Virus record (IMG/VR): IMGVR_UViG_3300020426_000005
Location: 1-56,581 of that record
Direction: 5' to 3' (one strand)
Origin: a virus
Lineage: Duplodnaviria > Caudoviricetes
DNA length: 56,581 bases
Part shown: piece after piece, positions 6,387 to 38,213 of the stretch
How positions within the stretch are numbered: the stretch's first letter is position 1
How the letters are laid out: the number at the start of each line of letters is the position of its first letter
Notes under the pieces: model-generated
Told to the model about the DNA's origin: nothing
What the model saw: only the letters and a program-made list of their open reading frames with translations
Database searches by the model: none
Translations under genes and position numbers: made by a program

Positions 6387-6674
6387 TAATTTCAACAATT
6401 AGTATCCATAATCATGAGAAGTATTATACACGTCGAAAACTCATCAGAAAAGAACTCATCAGCTTTTCAAGCATCCTTTCAACAATTAGTACCATCACAA
6501 AAAAGTGATGCCCGGTTCATCACTCCCGGGCATCTTTCAACAATTAATACTCACAATCATGATGCCCCAGGTGGGGCGTGTGAAGTATTATAATTCAAAG
6601 ATACATCAACCAATCGAACGAACAAAAACAAATCATCAAATTAAGGGAACTCCCTCAACAATTAATATCACAAC

Positions 6675-6809
6675 ATGAAAGAAGATAAAGAACTACAGCG
6701 CCTCGATAGGACCATTTATAGGTTGGATATCGAATCTAAAGTTTATGCCATATTGTTTGTCTTGGTCTTCATCGGGGGCTTAGTCTTTATCGCTTTAATC
6801 AACAATTAA
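6675..6809 (+). CDS. small single-TM membrane protein (44 aa)
   Basis: MKEDKELQRLDRTIYRLDIESKVYAILFVLVFIGGLVFIALINN; lies between two motif copies. Confidence 0.6.
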   Translation: MKEDKELQRLDRTIYRLDIESKVYAILFVLVFIGGLVFIALINN

Positions 6810-6833
6810 TATTCATTTTAAATTTTCACAATT

Positions 6834-7433
6834 ATGACTTCAATCACAACCCCAACAGCGCAAATCATTGCAGGAATCAATCCCAACTTACCAGCCGATA
6901 TCGAATTTATTCCGGCAGGAGAAGGATTAAAAGTAGCTTGTCTTCAAGGCGGTCGTATCTATCCATTTAAAGAACTCGAAACACCATTGTTTATGATGGT
7001 CGCTAATAAGTACAACACCGATCGAGGCGCAAAGCTTTTCATTAAGGCTTTACGAAATAAGCAGGGGCAACCATATTCATTTCCTGAGCAAGTAGAGATC
7101 TATACGTTCTATATGTGGGGAGCGGTAGACGGAAAACCAGACATCAAAAACGGAGAGTTACAACCGGCTGAAAACTTTATAACCGGTAAGAATTGTCCAT
7201 CACTACATTTCGACCACAAGCATATCACCATCAATAGCCAAGAACTCAATGATCGAGACATTAAAATTATTCTTATGGCTAATAACGATCTCCCCAACAA
7301 GGCTATTGCTGAGGAATTGAATCTTTCCATTAAAACATTGGAAGGTTATTTAACTGGACTATATCGAAAAGTAGGGGTTTATACTCGAACTGGCCTTGTG
7401 GCCGCATCATATCATAATAACATTATCGCATGA
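6834..7433 (+). CDS. LuxR/GerE-type HTH transcriptional regulator
   Basis: C-terminal LNDRDIKII...NKAIAEELNLSIKTLEGYLTGLYRKVGV. Confidence 0.8.
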   Translation: MTSITTPTAQIIAGINPNLPADIEFIPAGEGLKVACLQGGRIYPFKELETPLFMMVANKYNTDRGAKLFIKALRNKQGQPYSFPEQVEIYTFYMWGAVDGKPDIKNGELQPAENFITGKNCPSLHFDHKHITINSQELNDRDIKIILMANNDLPNKAIAEELNLSIKTLEGYLTGLYRKVGVYTRTGLVAASYHNNIIA

Positions 7434-7600
7434 AATCAGATTGGATACATGAATGGAAAGGCCTTAAGAACTACTTAGGGGGTATTTCAGTAAGAACTTT
7501 ACAGAGATACGAGAAAGAGGGAATAATTAAAAAATATAGACTAGGTAAGAAAGTCTTCTTTAAGAAAAGTGAAGTTGATTCTGCCTTAGTCGAAATGTAG
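7430..7600 (+). CDS. excisionase-like HTH protein (56 aa, missing from ORF track)
   Basis: LGGISVRTLQRYEKEGIIKKYRLGKKVFFKKSEVD fits the MerR/Xis winged-HTH pattern; ATGA overlap with upstream gene. Confidence 0.75.
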   Translation: MKSDWIHEWKGLKNYLGGISVRTLQRYEKEGIIKKYRLGKKVFFKKSEVDSALVEM

Positions 7601-7606
7601 AAAATT

Positions 7607-7762
7607 ATGAAAATGACCATCAATAACACCAAAGGCTTTTGGGAGGTAAATGGGAAAAGAGCTAAGGACTGGAACGTCAATGAACAACGATTTATGAATG
7701 ACTTTATTAAAAAAGTCAAACCAAAATCGGGCGTTCCATTAGAAATGGAAGTAGAGCAATAA
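7607..7762 (+). CDS. small hypothetical protein (51 aa)
   Basis: hand-translated ORF filling a gap in the operon. Confidence 0.55.
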   Translation: MKMTINNTKGFWEVNGKRAKDWNVNEQRFMNDFIKKVKPKSGVPLEMEVEQ

Positions 7763-7788
7763 ATATTCAATAATTAATATTCAAAATC

Positions 7789-9768
7789 ATGAGAAAAGAG
7801 ATCAAATTAAAAAGCTTAAAACTATCCTATTTCAGAGGGATTCAGCGTAAAGAAATCAATTTCCATAATCACCATACCAACATCTTTGGGAAAAATGAAG
7901 CTGGAAAAACCACGCTTGTAGATGCTTGGAACTGGCTGCTATTTGGAAAGGATAGTAGTGGTAACACCAAATTCGAAATTAAAACATTAGATAAAAATAA
8001 CGAGTATTTATCTGGTGTAGAACATGAAGTAAGTGGTGTTTTAGAGGTTAACGGAGATGAAATATCAATAAGGCGTGTTTTAAAAGAAGACTGGACCCGT
8101 CCAAAGGGACAAAAAGAAAAAATATTGAAAGGTCATATCACTGATTATTATTGGAACGATGCCCCTTTAGAAACAGCAAGAGAATATAATAATAGGATTC
8201 AAAACATATTAGATGAAAAAATTTTTAAACTTATTACCAATCCATATGCATTTGATGCTCTGCCTTGGAAAGAAAGGAGAGATGTGCTTATAGCAATGTG
8301 TGGAGATGTTAGTAATAATGATTTAGCAAATTCACATCCAGAATATGAAAGTTTAGCAAAGGTTTTAAATAGAACAACGCTAGAAGATTACAAAAAAGAA
8401 GTTGCTGCAAAAAGACTAAAATTCATAAAAAATCTTGAAGCTATCCCTACTCGTATCGATGAGGTGTATCGAGGAATGCCGGAGGATCGTGATTTTGATG
8501 TGATCCGCGAAAAGATCAACTTCAAAAATGAAGAACTGGCCGAAGTTGAAGCAAAAATCAACGATAAGTCTAAAGCTCAAAACGCACTATATGAAGAGCG
8601 TAGTAAAACCAATGCGAAGATTCATCAGCTTAAAACGGAACTTCAAAACATCAAATTTGAGATTGAACGAGAAGTTAAGGCATCCCAAACGCAAGATACT
8701 ACCAAACTGGACGAGCTCACTCGTAAGATCAAATCTAAAAAAGAAGCGATTGCCGATTATGAATCAGCGGTGAAACGGTTTGAATCAAACATTAAGGATA
8801 TCGACAAGCAACGTGATACCCTTAGAGAGCAATGGCATACTGAAAATGCTAAAAGTTTCGAGTTTAACGAATCGGAATGCAAATGTCCAACTTGTAAGCG
8901 TGCTTTTGAAGCCGAAGATATTGAAGCTAAAAGAACGGAATTAGAAACGAATTTCAATCAGGCTAAGCAAAATAAAATTGCTGAGATTTCTAAAAAAGGA
9001 GGGGAATTAAAAGAACAATCTGAAAAACTTCAAGAGCGTAAAAAAGGAGGAGAAACGGAAATAGTTAAAGCTAAAGAAGAACTTCAGGTATTAGAACAAG
9101 CCTTCGAGAAAGAAAGCGAACGCCTTAGCAGTAACGAGCCTAAAAAATCAATTGAAAAATTGGTTAAAGAAACTTTAGAAGCTAACCAAGATTACCAGGC
9201 GAAACAAAATGAAATTACCAAGCTAGAAGAAAGCCTTACTGAAGTGAAACCGGTTGATGTTTCAGAATTTCAACAGCAAAAGAGTGAAATAACTACAGAG
9301 CTTGAAACCTTGAAAAAAGAACTTGCTACAGAAGATGCTCGCAAAGAAGCTTTGAAACGTATTCAGGAATTAGGTGATGAAGAACGACAGCTAAATGAGC
9401 AGATCACCAATATTGAAGGGCAAGAATTCACGATCGAAAGCTTTACAAAATTGAAAGTGGAAACTTTGGAGAAGAAAATCAATAGCCAATTTAAGTTAGT
9501 CAATTTCAAACTTTTTAATGTTCAGATTAACGGTTCGATTAATGAAACCTGTGAAGCTTTGATTAATGGTGTGCCGTTTTCAGCGGCCAATACTGCTTCC
9601 AAAATTAATTCGGGCATCGATATTATTAATAGTCTTTGTGATTACTATAAGGTGTCAGCTCCTATTTGGCTTGATAATAGGGAATCGGTTACAGATATCA
9701 TTGACACCGATAGCCAGGTAATTAATCTTATTGTTTCACCTTCCGATAAGGAATTAAGAGTAGCGTAA
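7789..9768 (+). CDS. SbcC/Rad50-like ATPase
   Basis: Walker A GKNEAGKTT, long coiled coil, CPTC zinc hook, C-terminal WLDN. Confidence 0.85.
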   Translation: MRKEIKLKSLKLSYFRGIQRKEINFHNHHTNIFGKNEAGKTTLVDAWNWLLFGKDSSGNTKFEIKTLDKNNEYLSGVEHEVSGVLEVNGDEISIRRVLKEDWTRPKGQKEKILKGHITDYYWNDAPLETAREYNNRIQNILDEKIFKLITNPYAFDALPWKERRDVLIAMCGDVSNNDLANSHPEYESLAKVLNRTTLEDYKKEVAAKRLKFIKNLEAIPTRIDEVYRGMPEDRDFDVIREKINFKNEELAEVEAKINDKSKAQNALYEERSKTNAKIHQLKTELQNIKFEIEREVKASQTQDTTKLDELTRKIKSKKEAIADYESAVKRFESNIKDIDKQRDTLREQWHTENAKSFEFNESECKCPTCKRAFEAEDIEAKRTELETNFNQAKQNKIAEISKKGGELKEQSEKLQERKKGGETEIVKAKEELQVLEQAFEKESERLSSNEPKKSIEKLVKETLEANQDYQAKQNEITKLEESLTEVKPVDVSEFQQQKSEITTELETLKKELATEDARKEALKRIQELGDEERQLNEQITNIEGQEFTIESFTKLKVETLEKKINSQFKLVNFKLFNVQINGSINETCEALINGVPFSAANTASKINSGIDIINSLCDYYKVSAPIWLDNRESVTDIIDTDSQVINLIVSPSDKELRVA

Positions 9769-9983: not shown

Positions 9984-10014
9984 AATTTAAAAATCAACAA
10001 TTAATATAAAAATC

Positions 10015-11112
10015 ATGAGTACAGAAAACAATCAATTAGTAAAGCAGAAAAGCAATCAAGTTTCTGAAAATAAAAAACAATTATCTCCTTCAGAAAGATT
10101 TACACAAGCAGTGATGCGCGAGTTTCCTACAGGAGAAGATGCTAAGGTTACATTGTCCGAAAGACAAAAAAAGCTTATCAATCATTATTTTATTAAGCTA
10201 GATAGTGCTTTAAAGGATGCTGAAATAAGACGTTATGCAGGAACAAATAATCTTGAATTTAGCTGGTCTAACGTAAATATACATAAGCTAGCGCAAGACG
10301 TTATTCCTTATTCAAGCATTGGCTTAGATCCTCTTCAACCTAATCAAATTAATCTTATACCGTACAAAAACAGCAAAACAAATAAGTACGATATCACTTT
10401 AATGCCAGGTTATAATGGACTTGAACTGAAAGCAAAAAAATATGGTTTTGAAGTGCCGGATGATGTAACATTTGAGTTAAAATATTCTACCGATGTTTTT
10501 AAGTCTTATAAAAAAGACCGAAATAATAGTGTAGAAAATTATGATTTCGAAATCACTAATGATTTTGATAGAGGAGAATTACAAGGAGGTTTCTATTACA
10601 TGGAATACAAAGATAATCCAGAGAAAAATAAACTTGTTGTAATGAGTAGATCTGCTATTGAAAAAAGACGTCCTGAATATGCAGCTGCTGAATTTTGGGG
10701 AGGCGAAAAAGACAAGTGGGAATATAACCAATCCCAAGGGAAAAAAGTAAAAAACGGCAAGATTCAAGTTGAAGGATGGGAAGAAGAAATGTTCCTAAAA
10801 ACTTTGAAACGTCACTGCTGGAATTCAATAAACATTGATAGCGAAAAAATAGATGATAATCTTATGAAAGTTATCGAGAATGAAATGCAATCCAATGAGA
10901 GAGCTTTAAAAGAAGATATCAAGCAAAACGCCAACAAACGAAAGTTTGATACTTCAGATATCGAGGAAGCGGAGTATGAGGAGGAAGAACCACTTGCAGA
11001 AGATCAGGAAGCCGAGAAACAGCGCTTATATGACGAAGCTATGGCGGAAGAGCAAGGGCAAGCTTCAATGGTGGGTAGAACAGAGAATTTACAACAAGGA
11101 CCTAATTTTTAA
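10015..11112 (+). CDS. RecT-like ssDNA-annealing recombinase
   Basis: IGLDPL...LIPY...GYNGL...EEMFLKT pattern, acidic tail; lies between the Rad50-like and MBL genes. Confidence 0.75.
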   Translation: MSTENNQLVKQKSNQVSENKKQLSPSERFTQAVMREFPTGEDAKVTLSERQKKLINHYFIKLDSALKDAEIRRYAGTNNLEFSWSNVNIHKLAQDVIPYSSIGLDPLQPNQINLIPYKNSKTNKYDITLMPGYNGLELKAKKYGFEVPDDVTFELKYSTDVFKSYKKDRNNSVENYDFEITNDFDRGELQGGFYYMEYKDNPEKNKLVVMSRSAIEKRRPEYAAAEFWGGEKDKWEYNQSQGKKVKNGKIQVEGWEEEMFLKTLKRHCWNSINIDSEKIDDNLMKVIENEMQSNERALKEDIKQNANKRKFDTSDIEEAEYEEEEPLAEDQEAEKQRLYDEAMAEEQGQASMVGRTENLQQGPNF

Positions 11113-12397: not shown

Positions 12398-12592
12398 ATG
12401 AACCTATCTCCTGAAGAACTAAAAGACGTGAAAGAAGTACTTCAATTTCTTATAGAAAAGAAAGTTGAAGCAACTGGTGGCCATGGCGGATTTACGCCTA
12501 AAAATTTAGAACCTATTTTGAAAGAAATGGAAAAGGATGGATTAATCAAAAGTCGTCCAACCATCAACGGAATAGGATATTTCAACAATTAA
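12398..12592 (+). CDS. small winged-helix-like hypothetical protein
   Basis: 64 aa; stop codon lies inside a leader-motif copy. Confidence 0.55.
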   Translation: MNLSPEELKDVKEVLQFLIEKKVEATGGHGGFTPKNLEPILKEMEKDGLIKSRPTINGIGYFNN

Positions 12593-12604
12593 TATTTATC
12601 AATT

Positions 12605-13669
12605 ATGATTAATTTATATAATGCACAAATAGAAAAAATAGCCTTTCATAGAATTGGCAATAAAGCTAGAAACGAAGGAAAGTTTTTAGCAAAAGAAGCA
12701 ACGGTTTTGAATGACGAAATTAGTCCGCTGCTTAAGGAATACTATTTAAAACCGTTCCGCGAAAAAGAAGAGAACTATCTCAAGTTCGCTCACGAAGTAG
12801 ATTTGGAGTTTAATGAAATGCATAACCTGGCTAAAGAACTATTAATAGCCGGGAATACTAATTCAGATAATTTCATCACGCTTTCTCAAAAGGTTGCAAC
12901 CTTGTTATTTGAATTATCAGGGCATCCACATATTAAATCCGGTGAAGTATCAGTGGTGTATTTTCATAATCTACAATTTGATAATGAGAAAACCGATGCA
13001 ATAGGGATTTTCAAAAGTGAAATTAAACAGGATTTTTTACAATTTGATAAGCAAGAAACGCATCTGGAATTGCAGCTTAAGCAAGGTGTGAATCTAGCTA
13101 AACTCGACAAAGGAGCCTTGATCTTTAATACTGAAGAAAAAGAAGGATATAAGGTTCTTGTAGTTGACCAGAATCGATACGATACGAAGTATTGGCTGGA
13201 TAACTTTTTAGGAGTTGTAGAAGCTGAAGATAGTAAGTTTCAAACAAAAAAATACCTGAAGATGTGCCAGGACTTCTCTAAAGATGTGGTACTACAAGCA
13301 GAAGATAAAAAGGAAGAATTAACCTTCATGAATCGTGCTTTCGATCACTTTGCTAAAAATGATGAGTTTAATGAAGATCAGTTTCTCAATCAATTTAAAA
13401 ATCCTGATCTCATTCCAGAATTCAAAAATTACAAGGAAGAGCGATCGCAGAAATATAGCATTCAGGATCTTTCTTCATTCCCTATTGATAATAAAGCCGT
13501 TAGTGAAAGCCGTAAAAAGTTCAAAGGTGTTATTGAATTAGATACTAATATGAGTATCAAAATGGATTTCGTCAGCGAAGAAAGCGCGGATAAATTCTTA
13601 GAAAAGGGCTGGGATGAAGAACGTCAAATGTACTATTATCTGTGCTATTTCAATTCTGAAAAGAAGTAA
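12605..13669 (+). CDS. nucleoid-associated protein (YejK/NdpA-like)
   Basis: FHRIGNK, HPHIKSGE, IGIFKSE, KLDKGALIFN, YWLDNFL; 354 aa. Confidence 0.75.
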   Translation: MINLYNAQIEKIAFHRIGNKARNEGKFLAKEATVLNDEISPLLKEYYLKPFREKEENYLKFAHEVDLEFNEMHNLAKELLIAGNTNSDNFITLSQKVATLLFELSGHPHIKSGEVSVVYFHNLQFDNEKTDAIGIFKSEIKQDFLQFDKQETHLELQLKQGVNLAKLDKGALIFNTEEKEGYKVLVVDQNRYDTKYWLDNFLGVVEAEDSKFQTKKYLKMCQDFSKDVVLQAEDKKEELTFMNRAFDHFAKNDEFNEDQFLNQFKNPDLIPEFKNYKEERSQKYSIQDLSSFPIDNKAVSESRKKFKGVIELDTNMSIKMDFVSEESADKFLEKGWDEERQMYYYLCYFNSEKK

Positions 13670-14319: not shown

Positions 14320-14347
14320 AATTTTCAACAATTAATACCATCACATT

Positions 14348-15052
14348 ATGAAAGAATTAATTCAAATTAATGAAACAGAAAACGGAAGAGCAGTAAGTGC
14401 CCGTGAGCTTCACGAGGTTTTAAAGGTCAAATCAGATTTTTCTCATTGGTGTAAAAGAATGTTTGAATATGGTTTTCAAGAGGATATTGACTTTGCGTCA
14501 TTTTCGACGAAAAGTACAGGGGGAAGACCTTCAACTGATTATGCATTAAGCATAGATTGCGCTAAAGAAATTTCTATGCTTCAGAGAACTGAAGTAGGTA
14601 AGAAAGTGAGGCTTTATTTCATCCAAAAAGAAAAAGAAGCATTAAATCCTTACGCGAACTTAAACAAGTTAGATGCATTACGTTTAGCTGTAGAAGCCGA
14701 AGAACGCAACCAACTACTGGAAGAGCAAATAAAAATACAAGCTCCTACGGTTGCATACGCTAATAAGGTGCTAGATAGTAAAGCTACCTATGTAACCAAT
14801 CAAATCGCAAAAGAACTTGGCACAAGCGCGGTAACACTTAATCGTATGCTTAATAAACTCAATGTGATTTATAAGCAAAACGGCACCTGGTTATTGTATG
14901 CCAAATATCAAAATAAAGGCTTTAGCAAGACGAAAACCTATACCTACACCGATAGCGAAGGAAACCAAAAAACGAGCATGCAACTAGTGTGGTTAGAAAA
15001 AGGGAGAAAGTTTATTCACGAGCTTTTTAACCAGAATCTTAAAATAGCGTAA
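14348..15052 (+). CDS. antirepressor (AntA/AntB plus KilAC domains)
   Basis: VSARELHEVL...AKEISM; QIAKELG...WLEKGRKFI. Confidence 0.9.
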   Translation: MKELIQINETENGRAVSARELHEVLKVKSDFSHWCKRMFEYGFQEDIDFASFSTKSTGGRPSTDYALSIDCAKEISMLQRTEVGKKVRLYFIQKEKEALNPYANLNKLDALRLAVEAEERNQLLEEQIKIQAPTVAYANKVLDSKATYVTNQIAKELGTSAVTLNRMLNKLNVIYKQNGTWLLYAKYQNKGFSKTKTYTYTDSEGNQKTSMQLVWLEKGRKFIHELFNQNLKIA

Positions 15053-17160: not shown

Positions 17161-17303
17161 ATAAAAATTTGTAAGTTTATCAACGTTATGCACAGCATAG
17201 CACCCGCCATCACCGGGAATATTTTTTCAACAATTAATATCACATAGAATCATGTTATTTTCCAAAATTTATATTTGGGCGCATGCTTCCAATTTAAAAA
17301 AGC

Positions 17304-18101
17304 ATGATAATTAACGATCACTTTCAGAACTATAAACGCTATAATATTCCGCGTGCCCAGCTTGTAATTGCTGATATTCCGTATAATATCGGAAAAAATG
17401 CGTATGGCTCCAATCCTACATGGTACAACGGAGGCGATAATAAAAATGGCGAAAGCGAATTAGCCGGTAAGGAATTTTTTGATACCGATAAAGATTTTCG
17501 CATTTCAGAATTTCTTCATTTCTGTTCAAAGTTACTTCGACCAGAACCCAAAGAAAAAGGCAAGGCTCCATGTATGATTGTTTTTTGTGCCTTTGAGCAA
17601 CAATTTGAGCTTATAGAAAAAGCCAAAAAATATGGCTTAGGAAAATACATAAATTTAGTTTTCCGTAAAAACTTTTCAGCCCAGGTACTTAAGGCAAATA
17701 TGCGAGTTGTAGGGAACTGCGAATATGCATTACTGTTCTACCGGGATAAGCTCCCAAAATTTAACAATAACGGCAAAATGGTTATGAATTGCATTGACTG
17801 GGAACGTGATAATTCAATGCCAAAGATACATCCCACACAAAAGCCTGTTAAACTCATAGAAAAACTCATTGAATTATTTACTGATCCCGGAGAAGTGGTA
17901 ATTGATCCATGTTGCGGTAGTGGCTCTAGTCTTGTGGCAGCAATAAATACTAACCGTAAAGGTTTTGGATTCGAGATTAAAAAGGATTTCTATAAAGATG
18001 CAAATGAGTATTTAAGTGTTCACAAAAATAACCTAAACGAGATCAAAGAATTAGGTTATTCAAAGACTGAATTAGAGAAAATTAATCCGATACTTTTTTA
18101 G
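17304..18101 (+). CDS. N6A/N4C DNA methyltransferase (beta-class order)
   Basis: DIPY motif, HPTQKP, DPCCGSGS. Confidence 0.9.
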   Translation: MIINDHFQNYKRYNIPRAQLVIADIPYNIGKNAYGSNPTWYNGGDNKNGESELAGKEFFDTDKDFRISEFLHFCSKLLRPEPKEKGKAPCMIVFCAFEQQFELIEKAKKYGLGKYINLVFRKNFSAQVLKANMRVVGNCEYALLFYRDKLPKFNNNGKMVMNCIDWERDNSMPKIHPTQKPVKLIEKLIELFTDPGEVVIDPCCGSGSSLVAAINTNRKGFGFEIKKDFYKDANEYLSVHKNNLNEIKELGYSKTELEKINPILF

Positions 18102-18103
18102 TT

Positions 18104-18838
18104 ATGGAAATCACTTGCGAAGATAATATGGAATTAATGGCTAGATATCCAGATGGGTATTTCGACTTATCTAACGATGATCCACCATATTTTAAAGGTC
18201 CTAACAAAAGGAATTATTACGGAAATAGAGTAAATAAAATCAATATCAGACGTAAAGACTACGATATTATAGAAAAATGGGACATTCCTAATCAATCATA
18301 CTTTGATGAAGTAAAAAGAGTTTCCAAAAATCAAATTATTTGGGGGGCGAATTATTTCGATTTTATCGGTCAGCCGTTCAAAACACCAAGAGGTAAGGAA
18401 ATAAATAGTTTCATAGAAAAAAATCCTATTGGTTGGATTATTTGGGATAAATGTAACGGAGCAAGTTCTTTTAATGATTACGAATTAGCATGGACTTCAT
18501 TTGATCGCCCTACAGTAATTTATAGATTTATGTGGAATGGGATGCTTCAAGGCAAAAGCATGAATCAGGGTCATATCATGCAGGGAAATAAAGCTTTAAA
18601 TCAAAAAAGGATTCATCCAACTGAAAAACCTATTATTCTTTACGATTGGATCAATTTTAACTACACTGAACCCGGATATAAAGTTTTAAGCAATTTTGTA
18701 GGCAGCGGGGCAGATGCTATAAGCTCTTTAAAGTTTGATATTCAATTTATTGGAGCAGAATTAAATAAAAAAATATACGATAAAGCTTTGAGAAGATTAA
18801 AGCCTTATCAACAGCAATTACAATTATTCAACAATTAA
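18104..18838 (+). CDS. N6A/N4C DNA methyltransferase (beta-class order)
   Basis: DPPY, HPTEKP, FVGSG. Confidence 0.85.
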   Translation: MEITCEDNMELMARYPDGYFDLSNDDPPYFKGPNKRNYYGNRVNKINIRRKDYDIIEKWDIPNQSYFDEVKRVSKNQIIWGANYFDFIGQPFKTPRGKEINSFIEKNPIGWIIWDKCNGASSFNDYELAWTSFDRPTVIYRFMWNGMLQGKSMNQGHIMQGNKALNQKRIHPTEKPIILYDWINFNYTEPGYKVLSNFVGSGADAISSLKFDIQFIGAELNKKIYDKALRRLKPYQQQLQLFNN

Positions 18839-18847
18839 TACATCATC

Positions 18848-19108
18848 ATGACAAAAGAATTAAACAAAGATATCTCTCAAAAGATATCGGTAATCAGTTT
18901 TGCAGAAATAGAGCAAACAGACTTCTTTAAGAAAATGCCGAAGTTTCAAAAGAACTTCTTTCAACAAAATAAGAAACACGTTACACACCAGATCCACCAC
19001 GGATTTAATGTTGCCAGAAATTTAGGCTTCGAAGGGTGGGCCCGCCAAAGCAATGTTAACTATCAGGTGCAAATGATTGTTAAGGAATTAAATGAGACGA
19101 GGGTATAA
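18848..19108 (+). CDS. hypothetical protein
   Basis: 86 aa, preceded by the leader motif. Confidence 0.6.
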   Translation: MTKELNKDISQKISVISFAEIEQTDFFKKMPKFQKNFFQQNKKHVTHQIHHGFNVARNLGFEGWARQSNVNYQVQMIVKELNETRV

Positions 19109-20906: not shown

Positions 20907-21203
20907 GCAGTACAAAAACATAGCGTAGGCATAGTTCCTGAAAGGGCTTTAAGCGCAAACGAGCTCACGATTGAGTAAGAATTAAATAATTGAGCGTGGG
21001 CGTTTTTGTATTGTGTATAACTACTATTATCATCACTTTTCCTATTTGGAAAAGTTTGTAAACGGATAAATTAAAATCTGTTTTTATTTATTTTTTAATA
21101 AGGGTATTCCCTTATTTTTTGTATATTGCAGCTTACAACAATTAATATTCAAAGTCCTGCATCACAGGCAATCACATTCAAAATCGATTAACAAATTTAA
21201 GTT

Positions 21204-21716
21204 CTGGCCACAAGAAAAAAACAGCCTGAATTTGAACTTCAAAACACTGTACTCATTGGGTTAGATCCCGGTGTTCAGACAGGAATAGGAGCTATTGACC
21301 AAAACCAAAAAGTTGTTGGGTCTATGCCTATTCACTTAGCTATGCAATTCGTTTCGGATATCGCCGAAAAAGGCGTGAATATTCATTTACGTGTAGAAGA
21401 TTCTAGAAAAAGGAAATGGTACGGCAAGAAAACCAAAGGTAAAGACCAGGGAGCCGGTTCCATTAAGCGCGATTGCAAAATATGGGAGGATTTCTTAACC
21501 ACCCTAAAAGAAGTTTCAAAAGGAAAGATCACATTCGAAATGCTTCATCCTATCAAAGGAGGAACAAAGATCGATGCTACACTATTCCGAAAAATCACAG
21601 GCATTCAGAAAAGAACCAATGAGCATGGCCGTGATGCTTATATGTTAATCCACAATTTCACACCCAACAAAACAAGAAGGCCTATAGTGCCACCAAACAT
21701 ATTACAACATCAGTAA
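21204..21716 (+). CDS. RuvC-like Holliday junction resolvase (probable CTG start)
   Basis: in-frame VLIGLDPGVQTG upstream of the annotated ATG 21324; VEDS and HGRDA acidic motifs. Confidence 0.7.
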   Translation: MATRKKQPEFELQNTVLIGLDPGVQTGIGAIDQNQKVVGSMPIHLAMQFVSDIAEKGVNIHLRVEDSRKRKWYGKKTKGKDQGAGSIKRDCKIWEDFLTTLKEVSKGKITFEMLHPIKGGTKIDATLFRKITGIQKRTNEHGRDAYMLIHNFTPNKTRRPIVPPNILQHQ

Positions 21717-26985: not shown

Positions 26986-28323
26986 ATGGAAGAAGAATTC
27001 GAATTTGATTTTAAAAGCGCGCAAGCCGTTAAAGATTTTCTAGGCGAAAATGAAGGTCGCCAAAAGAAGATTAAAGAGTATAAGCAAGAGTACGAAGGTA
27101 CCGATGAAGGACGTAAGCTTCGCGATAACCAAATAGGGAAACGTGAGGATTATATGCAGAGTGATAAACGTATTGTAGCTGAAAAGTTAAAAACTCAGTA
27201 TCAACGTTATATCGTAACCACTCATGTTTCTTTTTTACTAGGAGATCAACCAACGATAACAGCGAATGATCCAGAGAAACAGTCTGCTATTGATATCCTT
27301 GACGTGTACAAAAAGAATCGTATTAACGATAAGCTTCAGGAGTTTGCCGAGCAAGCGATGAGTACTACCATGGGCGTAATGATTTTTTCTAGAGGAGCGG
27401 AAAATGAAATTAAAGCCAGACTATACACCCAGGATAACGGCAGATATACGCCACAATATGATGTGTATGGTGATTTGGTGGCGTTCTATTGGGAATTCAC
27501 CATCGGAGAAGTAGATCACATTTGGATATTCACCGAAACTGAAATTCACAAGTATCAGGATGAAAAGTATGTGACCTCAGATGGTCATGACTTCGGAGTG
27601 ATACCAGTTGTTTTTGTGGACCAAAAAGAGCCAGAATGGTTTATCTCCAAAGAAGATATCGACCGGTATGAAATGTTGAAATCAAAGCTCGCTGGATCAA
27701 ACAACTATTTTGCGCTTCCTATTTTGAAATTAAAAGGAGGTACCACAACCGATGAAAGCGGAGAGGAAAAAACCTTAATAGATGTAACTGAAGATGGTAA
27801 ATCTTTACTTCTTGGAGTTGCGAAGCATCAAGATATGCTTATCGAATCCGATGCAGAATTTTTAGAGCGTGATACCGGAGTAGATTCTATCGAACTCGAA
27901 AAGAACTGGCTGAAAGAAGATATTCACCGTATTACACAAACTCCGGATCTTTCCTTTGATAACGTGAAAGGAATTGGTGCATTATCTGGTCGTGCATTGC
28001 TCCTTATGATGCAAGATCCACTAAACAAAGCTAAGCGAAAACGTGGGGCGTATAATACTGCAATTAGTCGTATTCTTTCGATCATTAAGCATGGCTTAGG
28101 AATCAATGATGAGGAATTGATGTTTGATATTGAATTCAATTACTCGATTCCTGAGGACATGAAAGAATGGATTGAAATGTTGTATTCAGCCACCGGTGGA
28201 AAAGCAACGATGAGCCAAGAAACTGCTACTCAAAACAACCCATTAGTTAAGGATTCGGCTGCAGAGCTGGAAAAAATCAAAGAGGAACAATCCCAGTCGA
28301 TGGGTGAAACATTTGTACCGTAA
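26986..28323 (+). CDS. portal protein (SPP1 gp6-like)
   Basis: HDFGVIPVV, TPDLSFDN, LSGRAL; position after TerL. Confidence 0.9.
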   Translation: MEEEFEFDFKSAQAVKDFLGENEGRQKKIKEYKQEYEGTDEGRKLRDNQIGKREDYMQSDKRIVAEKLKTQYQRYIVTTHVSFLLGDQPTITANDPEKQSAIDILDVYKKNRINDKLQEFAEQAMSTTMGVMIFSRGAENEIKARLYTQDNGRYTPQYDVYGDLVAFYWEFTIGEVDHIWIFTETEIHKYQDEKYVTSDGHDFGVIPVVFVDQKEPEWFISKEDIDRYEMLKSKLAGSNNYFALPILKLKGGTTTDESGEEKTLIDVTEDGKSLLLGVAKHQDMLIESDAEFLERDTGVDSIELEKNWLKEDIHRITQTPDLSFDNVKGIGALSGRALLLMMQDPLNKAKRKRGAYNTAISRILSIIKHGLGINDEELMFDIEFNYSIPEDMKEWIEMLYSATGGKATMSQETATQNNPLVKDSAAELEKIKEEQSQSMGETFVP

Positions 28324-28679
28324 TGGAAAGTAAAAAAGTTGAAGTACCTATTTACGGTGAAAAGTTTGAAATCATTCTATTCGATAAAAGCGAAGAGGTT
28401 GAAAAGCATATTGAAGGATTGGAGCTAAACACTTCTTTAGATAATTATGATGGATGCGTTTTTCAATATAAGAATCAAATATACTTAGCCTTAAATACTA
28501 GTAAGGAGGGATATCCAACCCCTGGGATTATCGCTCATGAAGCTAAGCATTTATTAAACGAAATATATCTGAATATAGGCGCTCAATTGGACTTAGAAAA
28601 TGACGAGCCAGAAGCCTATTTATTGGGCTGGATAGTAAACCGAATACATGAATTCATCGCGGAAACCGAAAAGCGATAA
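28323..28679 (+). CDS. putative zincin-like metallopeptidase
   Basis: IAHEAKH...EPEAY. Confidence 0.6.
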   Translation: MESKKVEVPIYGEKFEIILFDKSEEVEKHIEGLELNTSLDNYDGCVFQYKNQIYLALNTSKEGYPTPGIIAHEAKHLLNEIYLNIGAQLDLENDEPEAYLLGWIVNRIHEFIAETEKR

Positions 28680-28717
28680 TAGAGTAGGCAAATCAACAAT
28701 TAATATCAATTATAATC

Positions 28718-29552: not shown

Positions 29553-30590
29553 ATGCCAAACAACAACTGCGAAAATAGACTACTATCCTTAATAAGTTCC
29601 CAAGAGTGGTACTTAGATCGACTGTACGCGGAATATTCCCGACAATTCGCTTCTATTTTCCGTGAGTTTGGCGGTAAGGTGTACAAGTATCATCAAAAAG
29701 AACTGGATAAGGTTTTAAATCGATTCCATGATGATCTGGAAAAAACATTTGCTGAACAAATCAGTAATTCGTTTAGCATTTCAAACCTATGTAATGATGA
29801 ACGCACTAAGGATTATCTGAAAGATCTGGAAGTAAGCAGCGAGCAAAAGGCAATTTTTCTAAAAAGCAATCCGAATGCCGTTGCTTCTTTCTTGTCCAGA
29901 AAACAGGCAGGTTTAAATTTGAGTGATCGTGTTTGGAGGTTAACTAATCAAACCGAAGAAGCTTTACTAAGTGGTTTAGAATCTGGAATTTTCGACGGCC
30001 GGCCGGCTGCTGATATGGCTAGGGATTTAAAGCGTTATCTAAAAGAACCGGATCAAAGATTCCGAAGGGTAAAAGATGCTAACGGAAAATTAGTATTATC
30101 CAACCCAGCTAAAAATTACAATCCAGGTCAAGGGGTGTATCGTTCATCTTACAAAAATGCACTTCGCTTAAGTCGGAATGAGATCAATATCGCTTATCGC
30201 ACCAATGATTTTGAACGCAGAAAAAATATGCCTTGGGTAATGGGGCAAAGGATTAGATTGAGTGCGGCCCATCCGCGTTTTGATATTTGTGATTCTCTAA
30301 TTGGAACTTACCCTAAAGAGTTTAAATTCACTGGTTTTCATCCAAACTGTTTGTGTATCAGCGATTCTTTGCTACTCCCAAGAGAAAAATTCAAAGAGTA
30401 TTTATCCGGTGGATCAATCGACCAACGCCACTTAGTTAAATCAGTACCGAAAAATGCATTGGACTACTTAAATGCCAATGCTGATAAGATCAACAATTGG
30501 AAATCAAAACCGTATTTCCTTAAAGATAATTTTACAATCACTAAATCCGGGATCATCACACCGAATGAAAATATACAAAGTAAAATATGA
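29553..30590 (+). CDS. head morphogenesis / minor capsid protein (SPP1 gp7 or Mu F-like)
   Basis: LSDRVW, RLSRNEINIAY, CD..HPNCLC. Confidence 0.85.
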   Translation: MPNNNCENRLLSLISSQEWYLDRLYAEYSRQFASIFREFGGKVYKYHQKELDKVLNRFHDDLEKTFAEQISNSFSISNLCNDERTKDYLKDLEVSSEQKAIFLKSNPNAVASFLSRKQAGLNLSDRVWRLTNQTEEALLSGLESGIFDGRPAADMARDLKRYLKEPDQRFRRVKDANGKLVLSNPAKNYNPGQGVYRSSYKNALRLSRNEINIAYRTNDFERRKNMPWVMGQRIRLSAAHPRFDICDSLIGTYPKEFKFTGFHPNCLCISDSLLLPREKFKEYLSGGSIDQRHLVKSVPKNALDYLNANADKINNWKSKPYFLKDNFTITKSGIITPNENIQSKI

Positions 30591-31865: not shown

Positions 31866-32237
31866 ATGGCAGTATTAGATTTAAGCGTTGAAGATCAAAA
31901 GGAGTATTCCGAAGGCATCGACGGCGTAGCTATCAAGAAATACATTCACGGCCTTGAAGGAGGAGCTGTTCTAAATGCAGAAGGCTTTCCGGATAAATTT
32001 ATTTTTGAAGGTCACGGTGTAATTCGTGAAGATGGCGAATTCAAGCCGCAACCTGTTGACGGCACAAAAGGAACTTTACTCGTTGGGGTTGTACGTTCTA
32101 CTACTAGAACAGCTAAGCCTTCCACCGGTGTTATGACTGGGGGCTACATCAACAACGAAGTGGTAAAGTATAAGTTTAACCAAGCTTCCCTGGATGCTTT
32201 ACAGGCGTTGGGAATCTATAATCAACCAGACTACTAA
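31866..32237 (+). CDS. head decoration protein
   Basis: 123 aa directly upstream of the major capsid gene. Confidence 0.6.
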   Translation: MAVLDLSVEDQKEYSEGIDGVAIKKYIHGLEGGAVLNAEGFPDKFIFEGHGVIREDGEFKPQPVDGTKGTLLVGVVRSTTRTAKPSTGVMTGGYINNEVVKYKFNQASLDALQALGIYNQPDY

Positions 32238-33529
32238 TGGCAGTATCAATATTTAAAGATCTGATTGATGAGTATATGGAAGGCGTTGTGCTTGCTCAAT
32301 ATGAGAAAGTAAATGGTTCCAAAGATGCTCCCAATTACGATCATGAACGTTACTTAACGCCTGAGTATAGTGCGGATATGACCTATAGCTCTGTTAGTGG
32401 TAATTACACCCGGATTACGGCTGATTACGTAGCGTATGATTCTCCACTTCCTGTGAAGTCGAGAGCGACCATTAAAAGTGCTTCAGGAGAAGTGCCTAAA
32501 ATGGGTATGAAGTTCATTTTGGACGAAAAACAAATGAACACTCTTAGAATTCTTAGGAGAGATCCGGGAAGGAAAATGGAACTTGCTCGTAAGGTATTCA
32601 ACGATTCTGAAAATGGAATATTCGGAATTAAAGAGCTAATTGAAGAATCTATGTATGTAGGTTTTTCTGGCGGAACAATGCTTATTCCTGGAGAAAACAA
32701 TACCGGTCCAGCAGTAAGGGCTAGCTACGACATTCCCGAAAGCAACCAATTTGGGGTAACAGCTAAATGGAGTGATCCAGCATCTAAGCCCCTTTCTGAT
32801 CTTAAAAGGATTAAAAAGGCAGCTAGAGCAAAAGGGGAATATCCTAACACCATCTGGATGGGTGCTGACACATTAGATAATCTGTTAGACAACAATCAGA
32901 TTAAAGCGCAATTTGCCTGGAACAACAATTTCTCAGGAGATAATCCGAACATTCCGACACTTGACGAAGATCAGATTAGAGCTCTTTTTTCCAAGACTCT
33001 AAAGATGAATCTTATTGTTGTGGAAAGGACTTTTGTTCATCAAAAGAACAAACAACGCATCGTTACAGAGGGATGGACTAAGGATATGGTAGTGTTAACC
33101 ACAGGGACCAATATCGGATCTTTGGTTTATTCTACTCTTGCAGAGGAAGAATTCCCAGTGGAAGATGTTCAGTACTCCAAAGCAAATGATTACATTCTTG
33201 TAAAAGAGTGGGGTGCAACTGACCCTGTTAGTCACGCAACAGGTGTTGAGGCAATTGTCTTCCCAGTTCTTCAGAATGTAGAATCTTTCTTCTACATCAA
33301 CTCTGAAGAGGCCGATGCTTCCGAAGATGCGCAAACTGAAGGTGATGACTTGTACAGCTACGAAGGTACCAGCTATACCAAAGAGTCTGTGGCAGCTGGA
33401 TTGAATGCCACCGGTGAAGTTGCAAATACTACTGCAGATCAAGCTGATTCTACTATTACAGGTAAGATCAACAAGCTTTCTGAAGCCGGTGTAACTGAAT
33501 TCAAGAAACATCTTGAAGAACCAGCATAA
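32237..33529 (+). CDS. major capsid protein
   Basis: ADYVAYDSPLP, GEVPKMG, KWSD...PLSDL (lambda gpE-like); extra C-terminal segment. Confidence 0.85.
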   Translation: MAVSIFKDLIDEYMEGVVLAQYEKVNGSKDAPNYDHERYLTPEYSADMTYSSVSGNYTRITADYVAYDSPLPVKSRATIKSASGEVPKMGMKFILDEKQMNTLRILRRDPGRKMELARKVFNDSENGIFGIKELIEESMYVGFSGGTMLIPGENNTGPAVRASYDIPESNQFGVTAKWSDPASKPLSDLKRIKKAARAKGEYPNTIWMGADTLDNLLDNNQIKAQFAWNNNFSGDNPNIPTLDEDQIRALFSKTLKMNLIVVERTFVHQKNKQRIVTEGWTKDMVVLTTGTNIGSLVYSTLAEEEFPVEDVQYSKANDYILVKEWGATDPVSHATGVEAIVFPVLQNVESFFYINSEEADASEDAQTEGDDLYSYEGTSYTKESVAAGLNATGEVANTTADQADSTITGKINKLSEAGVTEFKKHLEEPA

Positions 33530-35468: not shown

Positions 35469-35493
35469 TTGCTCATGATTAAATTAATTGTTG

Positions 35494-35528
35494 AAAAGCC
35501 GTTATCGTGATGAATAACGGCTTTTTTT
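35494..35528 (+). terminator. intrinsic terminator
   Basis: AAAAGCCGTTAT/ATAACGGCTTTT plus T run. Confidence 0.85.
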
Positions 35529-36211: not shown

Positions 36212-36493
36212 TTATTTCTTGATAAATTTTTTATTTAAATCTTCTGTTAGATTTTCATTAGCACAGTCGTAGATTATTTTCTCCATTTTTTCTACTTTGC
36301 TAATCAATTCATCATCATAATCAGACTTAACTCTTCCTTTTGCAATTTCTCTAATTTCAGCTTGAAGTTCTAAAATTGTTTTTAAATACTCATTATTTAT
36401 CATTGATAACTTGTAATTTTCGAATATTACAGCTGTTAAGTCAATTTCAAAAGATGGGTTATTTAATAGTTCATTTAGTTTATTATCATTCAT
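36212..36493 (-). CDS. hypothetical protein (moron)
   Basis: 93 aa, opposite strand, AT-rich. Confidence 0.6.
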   Translation of the reverse strand: MNDNKLNELLNNPSFEIDLTAVIFENYKLSMINNEYLKTILELQAEIREIAKGRVKSDYDDELISKVEKMEKIIYDCANENLTEDLNKKFIKK

Positions 36494-36522
36494 AGTTAAA
36501 TTTTAAGAGGTATCGTTGATTT

Positions 36523-36768
36523 TTATTTTTTACGTATTCCGTGCCATTCTCCATCTACGTAGAAATGCCCATATCCTTTTGGAGCTTCAATAAGTTCATG
36601 AATAGGAACATTTAGAACATTCGCAATTTCCTCAATAGCCTTTATTTTTCCTGTTTTTAATCGAGAATATAATGATGGACGAGTAATGTTAAGCTTTCCA
36701 GCTAACCACTCCATTGTCTGACCTTGTTTGTCTACTATTTCCTGAACTCTTAGCACAAATACAAACAT
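36523..36768 (-). CDS. XRE-family HTH regulator
   Basis: TMEWLAGKLNITRPSL...IEEIANVLNVPIHEL; start moved to 36768. Confidence 0.85.
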   Translation of the reverse strand: MFVFVLRVQEIVDKQGQTMEWLAGKLNITRPSLYSRLKTGKIKAIEEIANVLNVPIHELIEAPKGYGHFYVDGEWHGIRKK

Positions 36769-36787
36769 ACGTATTATTTGATTTCTA

Positions 36788-36859
36788 CAAATATACGCTT
36801 TTAAATTCAAAAACATATTACAATTTATTTGTATATGTAATAACTAATTGATACATTTG
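36788..36859. promoter_or_regulatory. divergent Bacteroidota promoters
   Basis: minus-strand TATATTTG 36788-36795; plus-strand TTTG 36828-36831, 20-bp spacer, TACATTTG 36852-36859. Confidence 0.65.
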
Positions 36860-36890
36860 AACCATCAACAATTAATATCACATCACAATT

Positions 36891-37085
36891 ATGAGTTACA
36901 CACCATTAGTATTTGACGTAAAGTTCTTATCAGAAGAACAGCAAGGGATAGCAAAGTTCCGATTAACTATTCCAGAGTTCCCAAAAGAGGGATGGATCAT
37001 TAAAATCAATGGAAGTCGTTACGAGGTTCATTCGATTGAGCAAATAGACTACACCGAGCAAACCGCTATAATCTTTTTGAAGTGA
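36891..37085 (+). CDS. 64-aa hypothetical protein, paralog of 56049-56243
   Basis: 49/64 identical by manual alignment. Confidence 0.75.
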   Translation: MSYTPLVFDVKFLSEEQQGIAKFRLTIPEFPKEGWIIKINGSRYEVHSIEQIDYTEQTAIIFLK

Positions 37086-37513
37086 TGGAACTAGAATTAA
37101 AACACTTAGCGCCTTATTTACCTTATGCGGTTCAGATCGAAACCTTGTATAGATCATTGGGTCATATGGGAGGTTTTAACCATAAAGAATTAGATGTATT
37201 TACACTTAATTTTTTTGAGATAGAAGATATAAAACCCATCCTAAGACCATTAAGCGACCTTACAAAAAAGATTGAGCATAATGGAGAAATGTTTATTCCA
37301 TTAGATTATTTAGTATCAGAGGATGAAGATGATTATTTTGTTGATACTGATTTTGAAAGTTACATAAAAGCTAGATTAGGTAATAGCGACTATGAAAAAC
37401 ACATGATTAAATATCTTCCTTATGGATTGATAAATAAATTACTTGAATGGCACTTCGACGTATTCGGACTTATAGAAAAAGGATTAGCAATTGATAAAAA
37501 TACTTTATCGTGA
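37085..37513 (+). CDS. hypothetical phage protein
   Basis: LKHLAPYLPY..KPILRPLSDL..HFDVFGLIEKGLAID. Confidence 0.7.
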   Translation: MELELKHLAPYLPYAVQIETLYRSLGHMGGFNHKELDVFTLNFFEIEDIKPILRPLSDLTKKIEHNGEMFIPLDYLVSEDEDDYFVDTDFESYIKARLGNSDYEKHMIKYLPYGLINKLLEWHFDVFGLIEKGLAIDKNTLS

Positions 37514-37704
37514 AACCCTTCCAACAACCCATTCTAGAAGAAAAAGAAGAGCAGCTAAGATGCAGATTACCTTACGTTCAAAATGCATTGTACCATTGGC
37601 AGAAACGAATTAATGAAGGCGAATACGCCCGTAAAAATGTCGATTTCTTCCAAACCCAAAAGGATAATATTTTAAAGAAACTTAAAAGATTTAATGATGA
37701 GTAG
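37510..37704 (+). CDS. hypothetical protein
   Basis: coupled 64-aa ORF. Confidence 0.5.
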   Translation: MKPFQQPILEEKEEQLRCRLPYVQNALYHWQKRINEGEYARKNVDFFQTQKDNILKKLKRFNDE

Positions 37705-38161
37705 AGAAATAAAGTTTAGAGCTTGGCTTCCATCTTGCAAAACAATGCTTGAAAACGTAACAGTATATCCGGACATGATAGGTTTAGGATTACAAGAATT
37801 TGAAAAAAATTTAGGAAGCTACGAAAACGGTTTTGAATATGATGGGGAATGTGTTAGAACTACCGATGATAAATACGAAAATGTATTAAGCGTGTTATCT
37901 GGTGAAGATTGGGTTTATGTCGAACCTAAAGATTACATATTGGAGCAATTCACAGGACGACAGGATAAAAATGGAAAAGATATTTACGAAGGGGATATCG
38001 TTTTTAAAGATGAAGAAAAATGTGTTATAAGATTTAATTTAAAAGAAGGGGTTGTTGCTGCGTATCCAATTTCAGGAAATGCCAATTTTATTTGTTCTTG
38101 GGGTTGGAATGAAATGGAAGTAATCGGCAACATTCACCAAAATAAAGAACTTTTAAAATAA
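37694..38161 (+). CDS. YopX family protein
   Basis: REIKFRAW..QFTGRQDKNGKDIYEGDIV..EVIGNIHQN. Confidence 0.9.
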   Translation: MMSREIKFRAWLPSCKTMLENVTVYPDMIGLGLQEFEKNLGSYENGFEYDGECVRTTDDKYENVLSVLSGEDWVYVEPKDYILEQFTGRQDKNGKDIYEGDIVFKDEEKCVIRFNLKEGVVAAYPISGNANFICSWGWNEMEVIGNIHQNKELLK

Positions 38162-38213
38162 CCCACAGAGGGACGCGTGTGTCCCTCTCTTAAATTCAAC
38201 AATTAATATCATC

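Follow-up and report, generated by a model that had tools for sequence, protein, structure and literature searches.

The 13-base, asymmetric word TCAACAATTAATA recurs in the IMG/VR record IMGVR_UViG_3300020426_000005, all of which (56,581 bases, estimated 68% complete) is the window analysed here. Judged from its genes, the record appears to belong to a temperate, siphovirus-like phage of Zunongwangia-type flavobacteria. The word stands in one orientation shortly before translation starts of early and accessory genes, its letters are under strong selection, and it shows no pairing with 16S rRNA. Our tentative interpretation is that it is a start-associated leader word, similar in behaviour to the start-associated sequence (SAS) of Cluster K mycobacteriophages, which would form part of the translation-start region and be read by a specific, probably phage-made factor. 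Reading of the word as DNA, by a LuxR-type regulator encoded next to an array of copies, is nearly as likely as reading of its RNA copy.

Copies of the word and their association with translation starts

An earlier note, made from the sequence alone, had listed 15 copies of the word, all on the + strand. The 15 coordinates are correct: 11 copies are exact and four carry one mismatch (A11G at 6392 and 6479, C5T at 7767, T1A at 21135). A sixteenth copy, missed in that note, lies on the - strand at 35482-35494 and has one mismatch. There were no exact copies in 100 dinucleotide shuffles of the window, and no copies of the reversed word. The note was right in placing no copies in the left flank (none precedes 6392, or follows 38208, at up to one mismatch) and in assigning the word to early and accessory genes, not to core structural ones: no copy was found before the terminase, portal, capsid, tape-measure or tail genes. 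Its description of the word as phage-wide is overstated, with 12 of the 15 copies in the early region between 6.4 and 21.1 kb.

The association with starts that had been noticed is confirmed by count. An ATG follows 5-13 nucleotides (nt) past the word in 12 of the 15 copies, against a background of 0.171 over all + strand positions (binomial P=1.7e-7), and a start codon is found within 22 nt in 14 of the 15. The exceptions to the 5-13 nt spacing are 6479 (GTG at 13 nt, ATG at 16 nt), 6799 (ATG at 22 nt) and 21135 (no start codon within 25 nt). Relative to the starts, the word covers positions of about -6 to -26. No copy extends into the ATG or into the coding sequence past it, whereas the stop codons of three upstream open reading frames (ORFs), ending at 6809, 12592 and 18838, lie inside the word, as the note had also pointed out. 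In the relatives described below, most of the matching sites have a start codon about 5-16 nt past the word, with drift of the spacer between the two (by eye).

Five copies form an array at 6392-6811. Copy 1 (6392-6404) has its ATG 9 nt on, at 6414, and an exact counterpart in the related provirus G001. For copy 2 (6479-6491), each of the three relatives, as judged by eye, likewise has an ATG or GTG start codon at a distance of about 13-16 nt. Copy 3 (6537-6549) is followed by an ATG after 9 nt (6559), and by one after 6-9 nt in all three relatives. Copy 4 (6655-6667) lies 7 nt before the ATG at 6675 of a 44-aa ORF, which has a hydrophobic-looking end (read by eye). Copy 5 (6799-6811) contains the stop codon of this ORF (6675-6809) and precedes the ATG of the LuxR-type gene by 22 nt.

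Further along the early region, copies head recognizable genes. An ATG is found 9 nt past copy 6 (7767-7779; exact in the relative L220), for an SbcC-like ATPase; 8 nt past copy 7 (9994-10006), for RecT; 10 nt past copy 8 (12582-12594), for NA37; and 10 nt past copy 9 (14325-14337), for the anti-repressor Ant. Copy 8 contains the stop codon of ORF 12398-12592. Copy 10 (17227-17239) has two hairpins 5' of it (17185-17217), and the ATG 12 nt on opens only a short ORF of about 20 codons (by eye) ahead of the methyltransferase gene at 17304. Copy 11 (18828-18840), with the stop codon of the methyltransferase ORF 18104-18838 inside it, lies 7 nt before an 86-aa ORF, and copy 12 (21135-21147) is part of a non-coding island (21090-21245). 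Copy 13 (28693-28705) precedes a 65-aa ORF of the head module by 12 nt, copy 14 (36865-36877) precedes a 64-aa ORF heading an accessory island by 13 nt, and copy 15 (38196-38208), with a hairpin (38167-38188) 5' of it, precedes a 162-aa ORF by 5 nt.

The leaders that contain the word differ from the others in composition and predicted structure. In positions -25 to -1, the 12 genes with the word have on average 0.08 G, compared with 3.8 in 67 others, and the predicted unpaired probability is 0.63 with the word versus 0.53 without it (P=0.007). Nine early gaps are at least 18 nt long; the word lies within 30 nt of the ATG in five of these and further upstream in two more. Genes without the word mostly abut or overlap the preceding gene. 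Ribosomes of the Bacteroidota phylum are described as ignoring Shine-Dalgarno (SD) sequences, and by eye such sequences are almost absent from the 40 nt 5' of the gene starts in the window. In Flavobacterium johnsoniae, adenines at -3 and at -12/-13 are reported as positive determinants of initiation, and the general leader determinants described for Flavobacteria are single adenines and low structure (PMC6847099). Where the spacer is 9-10 nt, the word places an A at -12/-13 and the spacers give an A at -3 (by eye).

Conservation in related phages

Three relatives (G001, L220 and L241), with 66-83% DNA identity, carry the word at matching places. The provirus record G001 is syntenic with the window (66-80% DNA identity) and has seven exact and two one-mismatch sense copies, three further copies with a one-base insertion at the sites matching 7767, 9994 and 12582, and, towards the end of the record, two one-mismatch copies 5' of ORFs that run leftward. 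L220 (contig C20 of genome G006, about 83% identical) has seven exact copies, including some at sites that are variant in the window. L241, a metagenome contig of 2.3 kb, has five copies.

Over the nine matching sites of the window and G001 that align without gaps, 114 of 117 word bases are identical. The corresponding figures are 57/117 for the 13 nt directly upstream, 37/117 for the preceding 13 nt, and 31/45 for the first 5 nt downstream, so conservation ends sharply at the 5' edge of the word. At 14325, 17227 and 21135, the word stands in short conserved islands, with the ORFs on one or both flanks unmatched in G001. At the site of 14325 it heads an unrelated 84-aa ORF in G001, and the island around copy 10 spans 87 nt with 86% identity, the ORFs on both of its flanks being unmatched there. 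The survival of such islands amid unmatched genes, together with the 114 identical bases of 117, indicates that the exact letters are strongly selected. Relatives that have their nearest named protein homologues in two genera, Zunongwangia and Christiangramia, retain the consensus. Generic determinants of the kind described for Flavobacteria, single adenines and low structure, cannot explain a word identity of 97% beside 49% upstream. The claim of the earlier note that the word exceeds the generic A-rich leaders of Bacteroidota is thus upheld, by selection at the level of sequence and by specificity for the phage lineage.

Searches for more distant occurrences gave little. Scans of viral contigs with 14- and 16-base words returned nearly exclusively single chance matches, with G001 as the sole true relative, and the two-copy pattern in viral and metagenome contigs returned G001, the true relative L241 and otherwise unrelated tandem repeats. 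The distant SbcC relatives L128 and L129 and the capsid relatives L218 and L219 have no such word, only generic A-rich leaders.

Specificity for the phage lineage

Host genomes do not use the word in this way. Three Flavobacteriaceae genomes (3.1-3.8 Mb) contain 1, 3 and 1 exact copies, and seven genomes of the Zunongwangia genus contain 0-3 each, except for seven copies clustered on one contig of G006. Overall, Flavobacteriaceae genomes have 0-3 exact copies per 3-5 Mb outside one prophage, compared with 11 in the window, and the comparison of host and prophage proposed in the earlier note thus comes out in favour of a phage signal. The combination of the word, 3-24 nt and an ATG is present in 100 of 401 Flavobacteriaceae genomes, nearly always 1-3 times. 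The exception is G088 with 23 matches; among the matches listed, all are copies of two longer repeated sequences. G088 repeats aside, there are no clusters of word and ATG in the 401 genomes. One match that recurs in hosts was considered and set aside: at five of five loci fetched, the surroundings of the word are conserved from genome to genome and the reading frame that starts at the ATG has no more than 3-38 codons; we read the match as probable coding sequence of the opposite strand.

An SD-type ribosome binding site was likewise rejected, there being no complementarity to the 3' tail of 16S rRNA. The best duplex of the word with 16S rRNA of the Zunongwangia genus has a predicted energy of -6.2 kcal/mol, which is matched or beaten by 62% of 500 shuffles; for the last 30 nt of this rRNA the value is -0.3 kcal/mol, and 98% of shuffles are equal or better. 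By the sequence comparisons, the word is specific to the phage lineage and not a host signal. A literature search for the exact word returned unrelated papers, one for similar elements in Flavobacteriaceae prophages yielded nothing relevant, and the literature searched on DUF805b, an RNA motif described below, was of no help.

A start-associated word in a phylum without Shine-Dalgarno pairing

The closest parallel is the SAS, which is described as a 13-bp, asymmetric sequence with 11-19 copies per genome, located a few bases (given as 3-7 bp or as 3-9 nt) before start codons, which are mostly ATG, in one orientation except for a single reverse copy, at non-structural genes only and without copies in the host genome (Pope et al. 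2011, PMC3203893). According to the same description, the SAS sometimes contains the stop codon of the upstream gene, is kept across subgroups before unrelated gene families, and has at about half of its sites an upstream extension (ESAS), which is an inverted repeat with a promoter (PMC3203893). As late as 2024 and 2025, its role was described as unknown (PMC11373665, PMC12699233). Nine of the traits listed for the SAS are shared by the word, including 15 sense copies and one antisense copy, the location before starts (ATG at 5-13 nt in 12 of 15), absence from the host and restriction to non-structural genes. As to sequences upstream of the word, there are strong hairpins at five of the 16 copies, a host-type promoter at one and a -7-like box at one more.

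The two elements are nevertheless distinct. The SAS consensus GGGATAGGAGCCC has the SD core AGGAG and can partly pair with 16S rRNA, whereas the word is unrelated to it and free of G. The spacing is 5-13 nt for the word and 3-9 nt for the SAS, and the LuxR-type gene beside the array of copies has no counterpart in the passages of the source that deal with the SAS. Going by sequence, on which the definition of the SAS is based, the word is SAS-like in behaviour and lies outside the SAS family. The SAS has been known in one mycobacteriophage cluster since 2011, and the word would be a second, unrelated example. Because the SAS, as described, overlaps the SD site, its effect is inseparable from ordinary ribosome binding. 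The word occurs in a phylum without SD pairing, and so points to a start-associated phenomenon that is independent of pairing with rRNA. In addition, the present system brings with it a concrete candidate reader and related word variants of a TAACGC class. In practical terms, true gene starts and the heads of modules can be recognized by the word in these prophages; it may also serve as a lineage marker in metagenomes, and could give a compact expression cassette for Bacteroidota.

In the interpretation that we favour, the word would be transcribed and form the upstream half, at about -6 to -26, of the translation-start region of some fourteen cistrons, which head early and accessory modules. 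In an SD-independent host it would act as a G-free, unpaired, A/U-rich landing stretch. The letter-perfect conservation argues for reading by a sequence-specific factor, absent from the host and most likely made by the phage, and one such factor would raise or shut off the whole gene set together. That it is the RNA copy that is read, what reads it, and in which direction it acts, we infer. The RNA-level translation-start signal proposed in the earlier note therefore stands as far as the place of the word in transcribed leaders is concerned, with reading as DNA not far behind. Bacteriophage T4 offers a precedent: RegA is a translational repressor and RegB an endoribonuclease, both acting on early mRNAs. 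The resemblance lies in a factor from the phage that would control many early messages together, at their translation-start regions. Conservation among RegA sites is loose, and RegB cleaves at GGAG, whereas the word is letter-perfect and G-free.

Several observations weigh against this interpretation. The conserved copy at 21135 (18962 in G001) has no start codon nearby, the ATG past the - strand copy at 35482 opens just three codons, and three copies of the array head short, overlapping ORFs that are weakly conserved as proteins. The short distance to the ATG could simply reflect tight gene packing, in which a gap consists of a site and a minimal leader. No RNA-binding candidate for the reader emerged: a homologue of RegA (PF01818, E<=1) was not detected in the record with its estimated completeness of 68%, no phage bS21 homologue was found, and the word does not pair with 16S rRNA. 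Finally, the sole obvious sequence-specific protein tied to the word is a DNA-binding protein of the LuxR type, which points to reading as DNA.

The LuxR-type regulator as a candidate reader

The strongest rival, possible although we consider it less probable, is that the word is a DNA operator, bound in double-stranded form by this regulator at the heads of modules for the control of transcription. Binding might create a polar roadblock or cover the transcription start site, in the manner of the Cluster A stoperators but with a different protein and timing. The candidate reader is a LuxR/GerE-type helix-turn-helix regulator of 199 aa (6834-7433, + strand). The five-copy array lies directly upstream of its gene, and is kept in four related elements.

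The C-terminal domain of the regulator matches Pfam GerE (E=4.9e-8). An AlphaFold2 model of the protein reached a predicted local distance difference test score (pLDDT) of 92 when based on 30 sequences, and of 58 when based on six. In this model, the C-terminal domain resembles the DNA-binding domains of ChrA, DegU, GerE and NarL (Z 10.7-12.0, rmsd 1.3-1.7, 64-66 residues) and is thus predicted to be a true NarL/GerE-type DNA-binding fold, in favour of the operator. The N-terminal domain (about 135 aa, 6834-7238) has a confidently predicted fold (pLDDT >90). It has no match in Pfam or among the solved structures listed, the structure comparison having barely tested that part; its family has 41 representatives. 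Close homologues of the regulator form six clusters, with the source names Zunongwangia and Christiangramia.

Full-length homologues of the regulator are encoded in at least 14 of the 401 Flavobacteriaceae genomes. When the 14 loci were compared with the early genes of the window by tblastn, nothing else was in common save a weak match of the first early ORF in L300. The gene order is alike in the 11 loci examined, with leftward genes, one or two small rightward genes and then the regulator. Three of the 14 loci have an exact 9-mer, different from the word, in four copies, each before an ORF starting with ATG (TATTAACGC, TTTAACGCT and CTAACGCAA). The three 9-mers have the common core TAACGC, and the first copy is always directly upstream of the LuxR-type gene; a control of this test was positive in five of 114 unrelated strands. 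The residues of the recognition helix differ by word class, being D-Q-H with TAACGC and D-F-H with TTAATCA, by eye and with shared descent uncontrolled. Both findings would suit an operator, as would the copies at 21135, which lacks a start codon, and at 36865, which lies over a predicted transcript start; these are natural places for one.

Some features of these loci deserve mention in their own right. L288, L291 and L298 have start-associated words of their own with the TAACGC core, at four copies per 20 kb, and in L298 three word copies are part of an identical 21-base unit that ends in ATG. In L288-L299, a GC-rich hairpin with a 6-nt loop and an A-run on its 5' side lies about 30-60 nt upstream of the LuxR-type gene in approximately 10 of 13 loci. 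It is located at or within the 3' end of an upstream gene for about 90 aa, and by eye its stems co-vary while the peptide changes.

The evidence on the other side is also substantial. The other 11 of the 14 homologue loci have no repeated exact word of at least four copies, and the co-variation of helix and word is, as said, uncontrolled for shared descent. As a rule, LuxR-type domains dimerize on inverted repeats, and the word contains just a 6-bp palindrome, ATTAAT (by eye). An activator bound 5-13 nt before an ATG would leave no room for a promoter and a leader, so that only repression or a roadblock is left. Moreover, a pure DNA site does not need the asymmetry by which the word overlaps upstream stop codons but never the ATG or the downstream coding sequence.

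Comparison with the Cluster A (L5-type) stoperators is instructive in this context. Like the word, these are 13-bp asymmetric sites present in many copies, in short intergenic gaps and oriented with transcription. The protein that binds stoperators is the immunity repressor, and the prophage is silenced through them. In the present case, the window and L220 have the identical word although their CI-like repressors are only 30% identical, and the word therefore does not follow immunity. The candidate binder would instead be the early-operon LuxR-type protein, which is about 81% identical between the two, if the homologue is rightly taken as that of L220.

An operator of the LuxR-type regulator and a leader word read as RNA could both be present at once. 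A more elaborate version of this idea, which strikes us as rather unlikely, is a "start code" private to a family of flavobacterial temperate phages. Each early or accessory module would have a lineage-specific word ahead of its first cistron, and this word would have two readers, a co-evolving LuxR-type phage regulator for the DNA and ribosomes without SD recognition for the RNA. If it were true, one phage protein would switch unrelated cassettes, and any cassette bearing the word would plug in.

Promoters, hairpins and RNA motifs around the copies

The + strand was scanned for the host-type promoter pattern TTTG-N15-23-TAnnTTTG. There are two full matches, with -7 boxes at 5738 and 36852, among 19 TAnnTTTG boxes. 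The first is a predicted early rightward promoter (5715-5745, + strand; TTTG, 19 nt, TATATTTG) that adjoins the leftward gene of the CI-like repressor. The second (36828-36859, + strand; TTTG, 20 nt, TACATTTG) ends 5 nt before copy 14. As the start site is reported to lie 4-5 nt past the -7 box in F. johnsoniae (PMC6847099), the predicted transcript from the 36852 box begins at the word at 36865 or one base before it. In L220, a copy of the word lies about 16-29 nt past a TATATTTG box when this spacing rule is applied, and 43 nt before the first early gene. The other copies of the early region have no host-type promoter before them, and we take them to lie inside one long operon.

These data bear on the proposal that the word is a promoter or start-site element, or else an RNA-processing site, with mRNAs that begin at or just after the word and have very short leaders. 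Such a role would agree with a start that is predicted to coincide with the first word base at 36865, with a -7-like box again 5 nt upstream of 21135, with strong hairpins directly 5' of five of the 16 copies (6537, 17227, 21135, 38196 and, on the - strand, 35482), and with the sharp end of conservation at the 5' edge. We nevertheless regard it as improbable. The word itself has no TAnnTTTG or TTTG box and is unlike the promoter of the phylum, both full promoters are separate from it, and a box of this type is upstream of only two of the 15 copies. A scan for sigma-70-type promoters showed no enrichment (63 found, 66.7 expected). The ATG spacing of 5-13 nt is too variable for leaderless starts, and for F. 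johnsoniae leaders of more than 10 nt are predicted for 87% of transcripts (PMC6847099).

Between copies 2 and 3 of the array there is a GC-rich hairpin (6507-6534, + strand; -17.0 kcal/mol), two stem pairs of which are changed on both sides in G001 and L241 according to an alignment of four relatives. In an alignment by eye, the array hairpins 6507-6534 and 6562-6575 keep their pairing (GATGCCCGG/CCGGGCATC versus GAGCCCCGG/CCGGGGCTC, and CCCC/GGGG versus CCTC/GAGG in L241). The hairpins and the short, overlapping ORFs that start after each copy of the word give the array an attenuator-like arrangement.

The conserved non-coding island around copy 12 (21090-21245, + strand) is 87% identical to G001, in which its flanking genes are unmatched. 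It consists of an intrinsic terminator (21097-21116), an imperfect -7-like box (TATATTGC), 5 nt, the word and about 100 more conserved bases. No stable fold is predicted for the island (z=0.08), which may be the control region of the late operon.

Copy 13 is preceded at a distance of 2 nt by a DUF805b RNA motif (Rfam RF02914; 28656-28690, + strand). The match is full-length, with 49.4 bits versus a gathering score of 35.6 (E=4e-11), and changes in the stem keep pairing. At five host DUF805b sites of the Zunongwangia genus, the slot of the word holds ordinary AU-rich, G-poor leaders. Copy 13 thus stands between DUF805b and the ATG in the slot of generic host leaders, which indicates that the word takes the place of a ribosome-binding region. 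The phage motif overlaps the stop codon of the head-module ORF 28323-28679; the host copies are followed by small ORFs (49-96 aa), and several of the encoded proteins look secreted (by eye).

The antisense copy (35482-35494, - strand) follows a two-way terminator hairpin (about 35495-35528), and is itself followed by 5 nt and the ATG with its three codons. The close relative L217 has an identical copy, and G001 has none at that place. It adjoins the terminator at the end of the head-gene block, and a + strand transcript across it is complementary to the early leaders in 12 of 13 bases. In a bolder extension of the start-code idea, the antisense copy could act as an anti-leader in trans, shutting down early translation late in infection by 12/13-base pairing.

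Leader composition and recombination

The word could also lack a specific reader altogether, being simply a very good SD-free leader that was spread by copy-and-paste recombination and is kept uniform by gene conversion and by exchange between related phages. In E. coli, poly-CAA and A/U-rich leaders bound by S1 are reported to drive SD-independent translation (PMC13577412). Like these leaders, of which the poly-CAA omega of tobacco mosaic virus is one, the word is G-free, rich in CAA and AU, and devoid of G-rich structure and SD pairing. The window also contains G-free leaders without the word, at 6105, 20661, 40090 and 51953. The array gains and loses units that have the word at their borders, and the phage encodes RecT and an SbcC-like protein. 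However, S1-dependent leaders, as described, act via composition, whereas conservation of the word extends to its single letters, and its occurrence is limited to one phage lineage. Its 97% identity next to 49% upstream is found between phages that are 66-80% identical overall, host genes do not use it, and the consensus is the same in relatives whose nearest named homologues are divided between Zunongwangia and Christiangramia. We therefore give this explanation little weight, slightly less than a promoter or processing element.

The earlier note had suggested, as another option, that the word joins shuffled gene cassettes, and this part was not borne out. In the early region, the state of genes as shared or unshared with G001 switches at five of 10 word boundaries and at 11 of 19 others (P=0.71). 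Between 5.8 and 40.4 kb, switches occur at eight of 11 boundaries with the word and 21 of 52 without it (P=0.09), and alignment ends lie within 25 nt of gene starts in four of nine cases with the word and 10 of 53 without it (P=0.19); all three breakpoint tests rest on a single relative, G001. Copies do recombine among themselves: some of the four related arrays contain units of about 54 nt, with the word at their borders, that others lack. The word appears to be a substrate for recombination like any repeat, and nothing in the sequences suggests that it is kept for that. Selection of the word as a microhomology joint for cassette swaps by the RecT-type recombinase is accordingly very improbable: copies 14325, 17227 and 21135 do survive as short islands amid genes unmatched in G001, some blastn blocks with G001 start 0-12 nt before the word (6800, 9982, 14317 and 18820), and indels of the array are bounded by it, but there is no excess of breakpoints, a joint would need no fixed orientation, fixed ATG distance or G-free spacers, and 13 bases are short for RecT-type recombination.

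Gene context

The gene content of the window is that of a temperate phage, with an integrase (2701-3954) and a leftward CI-like repressor (5027-5707). The rightward early operon encodes, on the + strand, the LuxR-type regulator (6834-7433), a small HTH_17 protein (7430-7600), the SbcC-like ATPase (7789-9768), RecT (10015-11112), a metallo-hydrolase, the NA37 nucleoid-associated protein (12605-13669), the anti-repressor Ant (14348-15052), and a replication initiator with a helicase loader. It also contains three DNA methyltransferase genes (17304-18101, 18104-18838 and 19092-20099), and this cluster (17304-20099) has no match in G001. For a 93-aa early protein, three clusters of homologues were found, and the protein atlas gave no usable match.

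The structural block comprises the small and large terminase, portal, a head-morphogenesis protein and the major capsid protein (32237-33529), followed by the tape measure (41448-45149) and tail genes. An accessory island (36212-40314) separates the head module from the tail module; it has two leftward genes and its own host-type promoter. Relatives of its ORFs 37085-37513, 37694-38161 and 39048-39488 are found in the early region of G001. The nearest relatives of the capsid protein are all from Flavobacteriaceae: a Zunongwangia metagenome-assembled genome (91% identity), Polaribacter (55%) and Tenacibaculum (50%). In the MuF-like head-morphogenesis protein (29553-30590), residues 179-330 match the PHROG family annotated as "Bxa ADP-ribosyl transferase" (E=6e-57); the match is probably to a head-protein part shared within that family, and not to a toxin domain.

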